Shown here in pieces: positions 13,200-15,339 of a DNA stretch of 64,000 nucleotides. The notes under the pieces were generated by a model. It saw only the letters and a program-made list of their open reading frames with translations, was not told the DNA's origin and made no database searches. This DNA comes from Escherichia phage vB_EcoM-Ro111lw: sequence record MH571750.1; one strand, written 5' to 3'. The position numbers were made by a program, and so were the translations under genes. Within the stretch, counting starts at the first letter, position 1. Every line of letters begins with the position of its first letter.

Positions 13200-13277
13200 G
13201 GGAGATTGACGGTAATTGGTAAACCTATCTCGCTTAGAACGAGATGTTTGAGGGTTCGAATCCCTTGTCTCCTACCA
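13200..13277 (+). tRNA. tRNA with Leu anticodon UAG but short (5-nt) variable loop; tRNA-Leu(UAG), atypical class I-like
   Basis: Acceptor GGGAGAT/GTCTCCT, perfect anticodon stem TCTCG/CGAGA with loop CTTAGAA, variable TGTTT, T-arm GAGGG-TTCGAAT-CCCTT, A73, CCA; 78 nt. Confidence 0.6.
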
Positions 13278-13284
13278 AATTAAT

Positions 13285-13360
13285 GCAGGTGTAGCAAAAT
13301 GGTTATGCGGCTGACTCTTAATCAGTAAGACGATGGGTTCAATTCCCTCCACCTGTACCA
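13285..13360 (+). tRNA. tRNA-Lys (anticodon CUU)
   Basis: Acceptor GCAGGTG/CACCTGT, anticodon stem CTGA/TCAG loop CTCTTAA, T-loop TTCAATT, CCA. Confidence 0.75.
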
Positions 13361-13366
13361 GACATT

Positions 13367-13442
13367 GGGGATGTAGTTTACATGGTTAAAACATAAGTTT
13401 TGCAAACTTAAGTACAGGGTTCAATTCCCTGCTTCTCCACCA
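13367..13442 (+). tRNA. tRNA-Ala (anticodon UGC)
   Basis: Acceptor GGGGATG/CTTCTCC with G3-U70 wobble (Ala identity element), D-stem GTTT/AAAC, anticodon stem TAAGT/ACTTA loop TTTGCAA, T-arm CAGGG-TTCAATT-CCCTG, CCA. Confidence 0.75.
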
Positions 13443-13448
13443 ATTAGT

Positions 13449-13523
13449 GCATCCATAGTTTAAACGGGAAAATTACAGTCTTCCAAACTGAGGTTGAGGG
13501 TTCGATTCCCTCTGGATGCTCCA
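13449..13523 (+). tRNA. tRNA-Gly (anticodon UCC)
   Basis: Perfect acceptor GCATCCA/TGGATGC, anticodon stem CAGT/ACTG loop CTTCCAA, T-arm GAGGG-TTCGATT-CCCTC, CCA. Confidence 0.8.
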
Positions 13524-13537
13524 AATTAAGGTGTGAT

Positions 13538-13951
13538 ATGAAAATATGCAGTACTTGCAGAATACCAAAAGATGAAAGCTTATTCCATAAGAATAAGAAC
13601 AAGAAAGATGGTCTTCAAAGTCAATGCAAAGACTGTGCAAGACTTCGTGATGCAAAGAGTTATCAAGCAAATGATAAAAGGAAAGAGGCTATTAAAAGCA
13701 CTCGTAACTTCAAGAGAGAGTATAACAAGACTCTAGCTAGAAGGTACAAAGCTTTATGCAAATGTCATATATGTGGTGAGAAAGAACCAGTTGCATTGGA
13801 TTTACACCATACAGACCCTTCCCAGAAAGATTTGAATCCTGCATCACTTTATTCATACTCCACAAAAAGATTAAAAGATGAAATCAGAAAGTGCATTGTC
13901 TTGTGCGCTAACTGTCACAGAAAAGTACATGCTGGTATCATAAAAGTTTAA
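13538..13951 (+). CDS. HNH homing endonuclease with N-terminal zinc-binding CxxC pairs, inserted in the tRNA array
   Basis: C-terminal ...DLHHTDPSQKDLNPASL...CIVLCANCHRKVHAG is a textbook HNH (His-Asn-His) motif; N-terminus CSTCRIP...CKDCAR. Confidence 0.85.
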   Translation: MKICSTCRIPKDESLFHKNKNKKDGLQSQCKDCARLRDAKSYQANDKRKEAIKSTRNFKREYNKTLARRYKALCKCHICGEKEPVALDLHHTDPSQKDLNPASLYSYSTKRLKDEIRKCIVLCANCHRKVHAGIIKV

Positions 13952-13952
13952 T

Positions 13953-14029
13953 GCTGCTTTCGTATAATTGGCTATTACACATCCCTTGTAAGGATGGAGA
14001 TGCGGGTTCAAGTCCTGTGAGCAGCACCA
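13953..14029 (+). tRNA. tRNA-Thr (anticodon UGU)
   Basis: Acceptor GCTGCTT/GAGCAGC, anticodon stem CATCC/GGATG loop CTTGTAA, T-loop TTCAAGT, CCA. Confidence 0.8.
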
Positions 14030-14125
14030 ATTTAGAGGTCAAGTGAAAGACCGCTTTGAGTCAACTGAAGACCGTAACAAATTCCACGGAGTTGAGTTAG
14101 CGGCACAACTCCAGACCTCTTTCAT

Positions 14126-14200
14126 ACTCGCTTAGTTTATATGGTAAAACATCACCCTTACAAGATGAAGAAAAAGGTTCAAGTCCTTTAGTGAGTACCA
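14126..14200 (+). tRNA. tRNA-Val (anticodon UAC)
   Basis: Acceptor ACTCGCT/AGTGAGT, D-stem GTTT/AAAC, anticodon loop CTTACAA, T-arm AAAGG-TTCAAGT-CCTTT, CCA. Confidence 0.7.
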
Positions 14201-14201
14201 T

Positions 14202-14279
14202 GTTCCAGTATCCCAATTGGCAGAGGATGCAAGCTCAAACCTTGTATTAGTGACGGTTCGAATCCGTCTTGGAACACCA
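14202..14279 (+). tRNA. tRNA with Leu anticodon CAA and short variable loop; tRNA-Leu(CAA), atypical class I-like
   Basis: Acceptor GTTCCAG/TTGGAAC, anticodon stem GCAAG/CTTGT loop CTCAAAC, T-arm GACGG-TTCGAAT-CCGTC, A73, CCA; 78 nt. Confidence 0.55.
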
Positions 14280-14284
14280 ATTTT

Positions 14285-14360
14285 GCAGGATTAGTTCAAA
14301 TGGAAAGAGCAACAGTCTACGAAGCTGTTAATAGGGGTTCGAATCCCTTATCCTGCGCCA
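14285..14360 (+). tRNA. tRNA-Arg (anticodon ACG)
   Basis: Perfect acceptor GCAGGAT/ATCCTGC, D-arm GTTC-AAATGGAAA-GAGC, anticodon stem ACAGT/GCTGT loop CTACGAA, T-loop TTCGAAT, CCA. Confidence 0.8.
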
Positions 14361-14377
14361 GATAAAAAGGTGATACT

Positions 14378-14620
14378 ATGCAAACATTAACAGTAGTTGA
14401 ACATGAAAACTGTGAGAGTATTGAGTTTGTCAGGGTCATTGGTGTTGAACACCACATTTTCTTAAAAGTGGGATACTTATGTGACCCCGCTAGAGTAGAA
14501 AGATTTATACGTGATTGTTTTGGTGGTAGACATCTGAAGAGTGTTATTTTTGAGACAGTTTTACCAGAAGGTTTAGAAACGAATAATAACATTTACCTCC
14601 TTACGAGGATTAGACAATGA
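14378..14620 (+). CDS. Hypothetical protein (80 aa) embedded in the tRNA array
   Basis: ORF track; AAGGTG Shine-Dalgarno 8 nt upstream of ATG; stop overlaps the next start (ATGA). Confidence 0.5.
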   Translation: MQTLTVVEHENCESIEFVRVIGVEHHIFLKVGYLCDPARVERFIRDCFGGRHLKSVIFETVLPEGLETNNNIYLLTRIRQ

Positions 14621-15174
14621 GATACTTAAAGTATGCTTCATGGATTTTCTTAGCTTTGTTAGAGCCATTTGCAGCAATCTTAGCAGTTATCTTAGCACCT
14701 TTTGTAGTTCCATTCTACAGTGAGAAGAAAGGACACTTACCTTTCGGGTTCAGATGGATGGAGACATATGACAACCCAATTGATGGTGATGAAGGTCACG
14801 TTAAAAGATGGGCTAATATTAGATGGATTGGTAAACTAGGCGTCTACATGCAAAGAGTTGGATGGCTCTGGAGAAACAAAGCTTATAACTTCTCTTACCA
14901 TGTATTAGGAAGAGATGTAAAAGATGTTACTAAGTGGAAAGGTAATATCAACGTAAGTTCTAACCCTGAAGATAATCAGACTGGTTATCTCCTAATGTGG
15001 AACAGTAATGCTTGGGGATTATTCGCTTTTATCCCATCAATTAAAGTCTTCGGTAAACAGTTTTACTGGAGAATTTATGTTGGATGGAAACTTAAAAGTG
15101 TTGTCCCAGAAGAAAGAGCATTCTCAAGGGAAAGAGTTATGTTGGCATTCTTTATTCATCCACTGAGAAAGTAA
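14617..15174 (+). CDS. Hypothetical protein (185 aa) with N-terminal transmembrane helix, embedded in the tRNA array
   Basis: ORF track; N-terminal WIFLALLEPFAAILAVILAPFVV hydrophobic segment; Trp-rich. Confidence 0.5.
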   Translation: MRYLKYASWIFLALLEPFAAILAVILAPFVVPFYSEKKGHLPFGFRWMETYDNPIDGDEGHVKRWANIRWIGKLGVYMQRVGWLWRNKAYNFSYHVLGRDVKDVTKWKGNINVSSNPEDNQTGYLLMWNSNAWGLFAFIPSIKVFGKQFYWRIYVGWKLKSVVPEERAFSRERVMLAFFIHPLRK

Positions 15175-15182
15175 AGATTTAA

Positions 15183-15258
15183 AGGGGATTAGTTTACAAG
15201 GTTAAAACCTCGGTCTTTGAAATCGAAGAAGTTGGTTCAATTCCAACATCCCCCGCCA
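15183..15258 (+). tRNA. tRNA-Gln (anticodon UUG)
   Basis: Acceptor AGGGGAT/ATCCCCC (1-72 mismatch), D-stem GTTT/AAAC, anticodon stem TCGGT/ATCGA loop CTTTGAA, T-arm GTTGG-TTCAATT-CCAAC, CCA. Confidence 0.75.
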
Positions 15259-15260
15259 AT

Positions 15261-15339
15261 GCTCCATTACTCCAATTGGCAGAGAGGCCAGACTTAAAAT
15301 CTGTGTTATGTATCGGTTCGAATCCGATATGGAGTACCA
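15261..15339 (+). tRNA. tRNA with Leu anticodon UAA and short variable loop; tRNA-Leu(UAA), atypical class I-like
   Basis: Acceptor GCTCCAT/ATGGAGT, anticodon stem CAGA/TCTG loop CTTAAAA, T-arm ATCGG-TTCGAAT-CCGAT, A73, CCA; 79 nt. Confidence 0.55.

Follow-up and report, generated by a model that had tools for sequence, protein, structure and literature searches.

The 64,000-nucleotide (nt) stretch of Escherichia phage vB_EcoM-Ro111lw analysed here (record MH571750.1; hereafter the window) carries three transfer RNA (tRNA) genes with leucine anticodons whose variable regions are too short for the long arm of class II tRNAs. In our best reading, these genes belong to a widespread family of arm-less tRNA-Leu genes found in phages, in bacterial tRNA arrays and on actinobacterial chromosomes. 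We estimate at roughly 70% the probability that they are working class I leucine tRNAs that are charged by the host leucyl-tRNA synthetase (LeuRS) and supply UUR and CUN codons; the charging is a prediction. The three genes, as called by ARAGORN, are:

13200..13277, plus strand, tRNA-Leu(UAG), class I, 78 nt including the encoded CCA
14202..14279, plus strand, tRNA-Leu(CAA), class I, 78 nt including the encoded CCA
15261..15339, plus strand, tRNA-Leu(UAA), class I, 79 nt including the encoded CCA

Each tRNA was dissected by standard geometry, anchored at its anticodon and its 3' end, into the following segments:

Leu(UAG): GGGAGAU / D region UGACGGUAAUUGGUAAACCUA (21 nt, one extra base) / UCUCG-CUUAGAA-CGAGA / UGUUU / GAGGG-UUCGAAU-CCCUU / GUCUCCU / A73 / CCA
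Leu(CAA): GUUCCAG / D region UAUCCCAAUUGGCAGAGGAU (20 nt) / GCAAG-CUCAAAC-CUUGU / AUUAGU / GACGG-UUCGAAU-CCGUC / UUGGAAC / A73 / CCA
Leu(UAA): GCUCCAU / D region UACUCCAAUUGGCAGAGAGG (20 nt) / CCAGA-CUUAAAA-UCUGU / GUUAUGU / AUCGG-UUCGAAU-CCGAU / AUGGAGU / A73 / CCA

The acceptor, anticodon and T stems have 7, 5 and 5 base pairs in Leu(UAG) and Leu(CAA), and 7, 4 and 5 in Leu(UAA), in which 27:43 is a C.U mismatch. All three anticodons, of the NAG or YAA type, sit in 7-nt loops with U33 and a purine at position 37 (CUUAGAA, CUCAAAC and CUUAAAA), and the discriminator A73 is in every case followed by an encoded CCA. Class II tRNAs are recognized by a stem-loop-forming variable region of more than about 10 nt, and type I tRNA-Leu by a leucine anticodon combined with a variable loop of about 5 nt; the variable regions here measure 5 nt (UGUUU, UAG), 6 nt (AUUAGU, CAA) and 7 nt (GUUAUGU, UAA). 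An earlier note, made from the letters of this DNA, had described short variable loops and A73 on all three leucine-anticodon tRNAs. ARAGORN and Rfam confirm the three genes as tRNAs, and the dissection bears out both the short loops and A73. ARAGORN gave the same coordinates and anticodons as that note and typed all three genes as tRNA-Leu, in agreement with published tRNAscan-SE runs on relatives. The Rfam model RF00005 matches each tRNA over its full length (model positions 1-71) with 44.5 (UAG), 44.0 (CAA) and 47.5 (UAA) bits, for a gathering score of 29. Single-sequence folding returned a cloverleaf for UAG and largely for CAA, and misfolded UAA into a minimum free energy (MFE) structure that is not a cloverleaf, with weak z-scores of -1.4 to -1.8; it was not used as evidence either way for the reading proposed here.

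The anticodon loops show some further peculiarities. That of Leu(UAG) (13234-13240, CUUAGAA) differs from the loop of the host tRNA-Leu(UAG), UUUAGGU, at positions 32, 37 and 38. It has A37 where the host has G37 and thus, on our own reading, lacks the G36-G37 context in which m1G37 is made; of the distinct class I Leu(UAG) sequences from phages, 30 have A37 and 13 have G37. Leu(CAA) has C38, which leaves the A36-A37-A38 motif incomplete.

The three genes are part of a tRNA array that also holds class II tRNAs:

10867..16535, plus strand, tRNA array of 26 genes, including the three Leu genes (ARAGORN)
11358..11445, plus strand, tRNA-Tyr(GUA), class II, 88 nt, variable region 15 nt (ARAGORN and dissection)
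12854..12943, plus strand, tRNA-Ser(UGA), class II, 90 nt (ARAGORN and dissection)
16363..16455, plus strand, tRNA-Ser(GCU), class II, 93 nt, variable region 21 nt (ARAGORN and dissection)

The Tyr tRNA and both Ser tRNAs, whose variable regions span about 21-22 nt, therefore keep long variable arms in the same array, as the earlier note had observed, and serve as internal controls for arms retained where the synthetase uses them. That note had also suggested that the phage supplies structurally unusual Leu isoacceptors, and they do differ from every Leu tRNA of Escherichia coli K-12: the five isoacceptor genes, fetched by coordinate, are 85-87 nt long and have variable regions of 13-15 nt. 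None of 5,426 E. coli genomes gave a BLAST match to the phage Leu(UAA) with E up to 10. A conventional class II tRNA-Leu elsewhere in the phage genome, which would have spoken for a different picture, can be ruled out through the complete close relative LF82P1 (88.8 kb), whose 25 tRNAs all lie in the array and whose only Leu genes are the same three short ones. The premise that bacterial tRNA-Leu is normally class II is right for the E. coli host and is not universal, since many Actinobacteria, Streptomyces among them (PMC6614811), have short-arm Leu genes on their chromosomes.

The window belongs to a Felixounavirus, and its tRNA region matches 315 phage records (Felix O1, Felixounavirus and other Ounavirinae) from Salmonella, E. 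coli, Shigella, Citrobacter and Erwinia. In Felix O1, tRNAscan-SE reported three Leu tRNAs with Cove scores of 52.2, 46.2 and 57.9, none of them flagged as pseudo (PMC3185647), and in Sf14 (Mooglevirus) the Leu isotype model is the top-scoring one for all three (PMC12482277). Because the three genes recur in hundreds of related phage genomes, the short-loop design is not a chance occurrence. Leu(CAA) is at least 99% identical in 159 phage records, and Leu(UAA) is kept in Sf13, Si3 and LF82P1. The Leu tRNAs of Erwinia phage phiEa21-4 (Kolesnikvirus), with the anticodons CAA, AAG and UAA, are 77-78 nt long and all have a 5-nt loop; their D arm is that of the window tRNAs, whereas the acceptor, anticodon and T stems are different. 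Changes in the stems also preserve pairing: the Leu(UAG) of Si3 carries a compensatory change from U27-A43 to C27-G43, and in Sf13 the whole anticodon stem of this tRNA is swapped (CCAUC/GUUGG versus UCUCG/CGAGA).

We further examined covariation in an alignment of 80 distinct short-loop phage Leu tRNAs, including the three from the window. For the four-arm cloverleaf, 98.1% of the cells are paired, whereas shuffles reach 57.4% and slid controls 35-47%; its covariation score of 1.054 compares with 0.237 and was reached by none of 500 shuffles, and 19 of the 20 pairs show double substitutions. The support for the cloverleaf collapses as soon as the partners are slid by one column. The array itself recombines, as can be seen from a hybrid Leu gene in Si3 (L477:5001-5079) in which the 5' part of Leu(CAA) is joined to the 3' part of Leu(UAA) via the shared CCAAUUGGCAGAG, with the intervening genes deleted and the acceptor stem pairing at 6 of 7 positions; Leu(CAA) and Leu(UAA) are therefore paralogues.

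Short-loop Leu tRNAs are found well beyond these relatives. The class I Leu(UAG) in the Ala-Leu-Ser slot of the T5-like phage DT571/2 measures 77 nt, and that of Acinetobacter phage phiAbaA1 measures 78 nt; homologues of the window Leu(UAG) in T5-like and Acinetobacter phages are about 75-83% identical to it. Altogether, phages with short Leu tRNAs include those of E. coli, Salmonella, Shigella, Erwinia and Acinetobacter, and their commonest variable-loop length is 5 nt. A descriptor built from the D loop typical of Leu, an anticodon loop for Leu and a T loop retrieved at least 120 IMG/VR loci in each of its short- and long-spacing versions, numbers that speak of presence and not of frequency. 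ARAGORN on the 235 listed loci gave a bimodal distribution of Leu lengths (177 tRNAs of 73-78 nt and 196 of 79-97 nt), with long forms for 136 of 137 Ser and 55 of 57 Tyr tRNAs. Our sole basis for a frequency estimate is a less-biased IMG/VR sample fetched with a non-Leu D-arm motif, which is small and gives a rough fraction: 13 of 33 Leu tRNAs are short over all loci, and in arrays of at least four tRNAs the short ones are 12 of 29 for Leu, 0 of 23 for Ser and 1 of 11 for Tyr. Viral loci with class I Leu have a median guanine-cytosine (GC) content of 0.41, and only 2 of 89 are at 60% GC or above, so that these loci are not mainly from actinophages and the short viral Leu tRNAs are no actinophage artefact.

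In bacterial genomes, the short-spacing descriptor likewise retrieved at least 120 loci, again indicating presence rather than frequency. The matches listed are largely from Actinobacteria, such as Nocardia, Mycobacterium, Rhodococcus, Corynebacterium, Arthrobacter and Bifidobacterium, among others, and none of them is from Enterobacteria; 83 of the 120 loci hold a single tRNA. A further 17 loci among the matches listed are dense arrays of 10-34 tRNAs, including some from cyanobacteria, Polyangia and Acidobacteriota. Such arrays, with 10-34 tRNAs within 8 kb (for example loci L368, L388, L422, L429 and L448), also occur in Mycobacterium and Rhodocyclaceae, and the dense bacterial arrays carry class I Leu, often as several isoacceptors each. 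The arm-less Leu design thus seems to travel with mobile tRNA sets in general.

Whether such tRNAs can be charged depends on what the host enzyme reads. The leucine identity set of E. coli comprises A73, A15:U48, G18G19, A20a and the pairs G18:U55, G19:C56 and U54:A58; the anticodon and the long arm are both unneeded, and arm-less variants remain active (PMC9976931). All three window tRNAs have G18G19 and A20a as well as U8, A14, A15 and U48, and hence U8:A14 and the A15:U48 Levitt pair, and their T loop, UUCGAAU, is able to form G18:U55, G19:C56 and U54:A58. The 20-nt D regions of CAA and UAA are colinear with the E. coli UGGCGGAAUUGGUAGACGCG and provide G18G19 and A20a within AAUUGGCAGA, the E. 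coli counterpart of which is AAUUGGUAGA. A73 and U48, which the search pattern left free, are found in all 122 of the distinct short-loop Leu tRNAs from phages; the two features occur together in 112/112 short Leu and 116/118 long Leu, but in only 139/966 non-Leu short-loop tRNAs.

A LeuRS of the E. coli type reads A73 and the shape of the elbow and core (U8:A14, A15:U48, G18G19, A20a and the D/T-loop pairs), and neither the anticodon nor the arm. Because all the required identity elements are present, the host LeuRS should leucylate the three tRNAs. The suggestion of the earlier note that they might be charged non-canonically is unneeded, as the canonical set is kept and the long arm lies outside that set (PMC9976931). 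The anticodons UAA, CAA and UAG would read UUA and UUG, CUA and CUG, and probably CUU, codons that are frequent in this phage with a GC content of 39%: the Leu codons of the window are CUU (28.5%), UUA (27.0%), CUG (14.7%), UUG (13.1%), CUA (11.0%) and CUC (5.7%). CUG is the dominant Leu codon in E. coli. In Felix O1, Leu[TTA] is among the codons aided by the phage tRNAs (PMC3185647). From the identity nucleotides and the codon demand we infer that the three tRNAs are probably leucylated by the host LeuRS and used in translation.

Several points weigh against this reading. E. coli LeuRS (EcLeuRS) failed to charge the type I tRNA-Leu(CAA) of Streptomyces and has been described as charging type II only (Fan et al. 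2019, PMC6614811), and the same group reports a preference of its leucine-specific domain for tRNAs in which the variable region is large; the efficiency with which it charges the phage tRNAs may therefore be reduced. The D arm of Leu(UAG) is irregular, with a 21-nt D region and a C.C mismatch or bulge. In Sf14, the Leu model wins for Leu(UAG) by a narrow margin (67.4 versus 65.7 for Ile2; PMC12482277), and RefSeq labels the Si3 copy of this gene 'tRNA-OTHER, pseudo'. Finally, the search pattern imposed A14, A15, G18G19 and an A two bases after G19 on most of the comparison sequences, so that the independent evidence in the identity statistics comes from A73, U48 and the stems only. As to the first of these points, the Streptomyces tRNA has C48, whereas all phage copies have U48, and E. 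coli needs A15:U48; we infer, short of proof, that the failure of EcLeuRS on the former may not apply to the latter. Database labels are inconsistent more generally: the copies in Si3 (L477:4423-4497), phiEa21-4 (L239:6777-6853) and the FSL SP-012 record are 'tRNA-OTHER' or pseudo, and identical or near-identical Leu genes in other records are labelled tRNA-Leu.

The arm-less tRNAs fall into two D-arm subtypes. CAA and UAA have a 'UA.CCC...GAGG' D arm (UA.CCCAAUUGGCAGAGG..) in common with Actinobacteria; the actinobacterial D region UAUCCCAAUUGGCAGAGGAA, from class I Leu(CAA) of Rhodococcus and Bifidobacterium, is the same as that of the window Leu(CAA) at 19 of 20 positions. UAG instead has UGACGG.AAUUGG.A.ACCUA, an arm that is similar to those of class II and clusters with DT571/2 and phiAbaA1. 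In addition, short-loop Leu tRNAs (5-7 nt) have relatives that are 83-87% identical outside the variable region and carry 10-15 nt there, most of them stubby arms of 10-11 nt. Since Leu tRNAs of such similarity differ in this way, the arm appears to have been eroded repeatedly, and its shortening looks graded and recurrent, and not like one ancient event. Bacterial tyrosyl-tRNA synthetase (TyrRS) contacts the long variable arm. The arm is also reported to be the major identity element for seryl-tRNA synthetase (SerRS; PMC9976931). It would thus be kept on Ser and Tyr and be dispensable for Leu, where it could be shortened or lost time and again because only LeuRS tolerates the loss.

One genomic slot documents a different route. 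In Tequintavirus, the position between Ala and Ser holds a class II Leu(UAG) in T5 (L245:5625-5709) and the class I gene in DT571/2 (L478:297-373), and many T5-like records match the class I Leu(UAG) type at about 75%. A simple deletion of the arm from a T5-type Leu(UAG) can be ruled out for DT571/2: its stems differ throughout and are unrelated to those of T5, so the gene was replaced. The resemblance of the DT571/2 gene to the window Leu(UAG) suggests a possible exchange between Felix O1-like and T5-like phages.

An explanation that is compatible with charging by LeuRS, and concerns what drove the loss, is counter-defence: if effectors of the host or of rival elements read the long arm, as nucleases and nucleotidyltransferase toxins might, an arm-less Leu supply would be invisible to them and stay usable when host Leu tRNAs are cleaved or modified at the 3' end, and its recurrence would be an adaptive, convergent anti-defence strategy. 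The phages would then have discarded the single structural mark of class II tRNAs in the one such family whose synthetase can do without it. Deleting the arm reduces the cleavage of tRNA-Leu by SLFN11 (PMC11615386), MenT3 and probably the abortive-infection toxin AbiEii prefer class II tRNAs, and tRNA arrays have been discussed in the literature as putative anti-defence elements. Short Leu tRNAs make up 13 of the 33 Leu tRNAs in the less-biased viral sample, and the bacterial matches listed are mostly actinobacterial, with no Enterobacteria among them; viral loci with class I Leu are mostly of low or middle GC, the Tequintavirus slot has held both classes, and the Leu(UAG) anticodon loop is unlike that of the host at three positions. 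However, Salmonella and E. coli have no known effector directed at Leu or at the arm, the Ser and Tyr tRNAs of the same phages keep their arms and would remain open to attack by an arm-reading effector, and many phages, including T4 and T5, thrive with class II Leu. The tolerance of the synthetase alone fully explains the Leu-only pattern. Evasion of nucleases, which the earlier note had raised, or of toxins is therefore a plausible secondary hypothesis, drawn by analogy with arm-reading enzymes, and we consider it unlikely as the force behind the loss. If true, it would mean that phage tRNAs escape by a change of architecture as well as by mutations of the anticodon loop, and would account for the large fraction of short Leu tRNAs in viral contigs as against mainly Actinobacteria among the bacterial matches listed.

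Considerably less probable is that the genes encode tRNA-shaped RNAs which enterobacterial LeuRS leaves unleucylated, whether they act as decoys or regulators, serve some other enzyme as substrates or come from genes in decay. Such a view draws on the failure of EcLeuRS with a natural type I tRNA-Leu (PMC6614811), on the Rfam scores of the three tRNAs, which are among the lowest of the array, and on pipelines that sometimes label the genes 'tRNA-OTHER' or pseudo. It sits poorly with stems, anticodon loops, A73 and U48 that are under strong purifying selection with compensatory changes, with leucine anticodons kept across genera, and with the lack of any other Leu tRNA in the phage, whose codon demand the three fit. 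The synthetases of other A73 tRNAs mostly read the anticodon, and that for Ala needs G3:U70. The window Leu tRNAs have neither G3:U70 nor the anticodons of those other enzymes. A mis-called isotype or anticodon, with a true fold that has another anticodon or a hidden arm, could appeal to the non-cloverleaf MFE fold of UAA and the weak z-scores, and is barely credible given that ARAGORN, Rfam and published tRNAscan-SE agree, that the 7-nt loops have U33 and a purine at 37, that the 5-7 nt between the anticodon and T stems are too few for an arm, and that covariation supports exactly the same register and is lost on a one-column slide.

Type I tRNA-Leu is already known from animal mitochondria and Streptomyces, and the tRNA-Leu annotation of the Felix O1 genes is years old. 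Our literature search found no description of the class I architecture of phage tRNA-Leu or of its prevalence, only the Streptomyces paper and unrelated uses of the term; the variable region is never mentioned in the Felix O1 genome paper (PMC3185647) or the Sf14 tRNA paper (PMC12482277), and Sun and Caetano-Anolles (2008) treat class I 'takeovers' in general terms with no phage case. The prevalence of class I tRNA-Leu in phages thus appears to be unreported. A 2023 review states that Leu carries the long arm everywhere except in animal mitochondria (PMC9976931), a rule that the arm-less Leu genes of coliphages and the wider viral pattern break; this general pattern is a more interesting product than the three genes alone. 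The genes also serve as a natural experiment on whether E. coli LeuRS disregards the arm, as was concluded in vitro, and bear on the published statement that EcLeuRS charges type II only. They may matter to annotation, where pipelines sometimes mark arm-less Leu genes as pseudo or undetermined. If accepted by E. coli LeuRS, they would be compact scaffolds for the design of suppressor or orthogonal tRNAs, and if defence effectors do use the arm as a handle, they would provide a directly testable case of structural immune evasion.

Besides tRNAs, the array contains two open reading frames (ORFs) and non-tRNA structured elements. The ORFs are:

13538-13951, inside the tRNA array, HNH endonuclease (weak match), 137 amino acids
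14617-15174, inside the tRNA array, DUF7338 protein, 185 amino acids

The ORFs between the tRNA blocks vary among relatives, as expected if homing endonucleases shuffle the array. Four intergenic elements (11028-11112, 11195-11265, 11581-11661 and 11668-11811) start with ACAGAAGACC(R)..T.CAGCAA and end with GGTCTGG, and their ends pair into a long-range stem; TAAT or TCAT follows GGTCTGG in the three copies grouped by the repeat finder. The fourth element encloses a circularly permuted tRNA-like module with a T arm (11722-11738), an acceptor-like hairpin (11739-11756) and a D arm (11759-11773), which we take to be the layout of bacterial YrlA-type Y RNAs. Just upstream of the array, an ORF at 9286-10701 encodes a protein with DUF2828 and DUF7788, labelled 'RNA-binding protein' in Si3, and it may form a Ro60-like/Y-RNA-like pair with the intergenic elements. 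The published 5' motif of Y RNAs (GNCGAAN0-1G) is not obvious in these elements, Rfam gives no Y RNA match for them, and the ORF has no sequence match in the PDB, which leaves a Ro60-like identity unsupported at this level. ARAGORN also missed a tRNA-like sequence at 12758-12840 that has an AUGGGAC/GUCCCAU acceptor, G73, an encoded CCA, a T arm and, in its anticodon loop CUCCAAA, the Trp anticodon CCA. About 8 nt are inserted in its D region, which is thereby abnormal; over 42 nt the sequence shares 71% identity with tRNA-Arg(UCU), and it folds with a z-score of -2.9. This sequence is an odd tRNA-Trp or else a paralogue in decay; the Trp tRNA of phiEa21-4 is normal.

Several known systems share features with the three arm-less tRNAs. 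Phage tRNAs that evade anticodon nucleases (PMC10264068) and the T5 tRNAs that rescue from PARIS differ from host tRNAs at features read by the defence, much as is conceivable here; in those cases, which are backed by experiments, the anticodon loop carries point changes, whereas in the window a whole arm is missing and evasion is argued by analogy. The Leu(UAA) of T4 and the Leu(UAG) of T5 are, like the window genes, phage-encoded isoacceptors in tRNA clusters that read host-rare codons. However, both are class II, with 87 nt and a 15-nt variable region in T4 and 85 nt and 13 nt in T5. Animal mitochondrial tRNA-Leu(UUR/CUN) are class I as well, with an identity that rests on A73 and A14 and needs no long arm. 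Unlike the phage tRNAs, which have canonical D and T loops, they are degenerate in structure and work with a dedicated mitochondrial LeuRS in a separate compartment.

The closest natural counterpart is the type I tRNA-Leu(CAA) of Streptomyces coelicolor (PMC6614811), which like the phage tRNAs is of bacterial type and has a 5-nt variable loop and A73; five nt was found to be the minimum workable loop (PMC6614811). The D arm of the Streptomyces and actinobacterial type I tRNAs, UA.CCCAAUUGGCAGAGG.., is nearly the same as that of the window CAA and UAA. These tRNAs are nevertheless encoded by chromosomal genes of the host and charged by a LeuRS with a leucine-specific domain suited to type I, and the hosts of the phages have their own Leu tRNAs all in class II. 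The Streptomyces tRNA further has C48 and does not use A73 as an identity element, and the phage tRNAs have U48 and loops of 5-7 nt. Finally, engineered arm-less or minimal versions of E. coli tRNA-Leu (Asahara 1993/1998, Tocchini-Valentini 2000 and Larkin 2002, summarised in PMC9976931) established that LeuRS needs A73, the D/T-loop contacts and the 15:48 core, and not the arm. The phage tRNAs, which are encoded by natural genes and differ in stem sequence, resemble such laboratory constructs as they might occur in nature.

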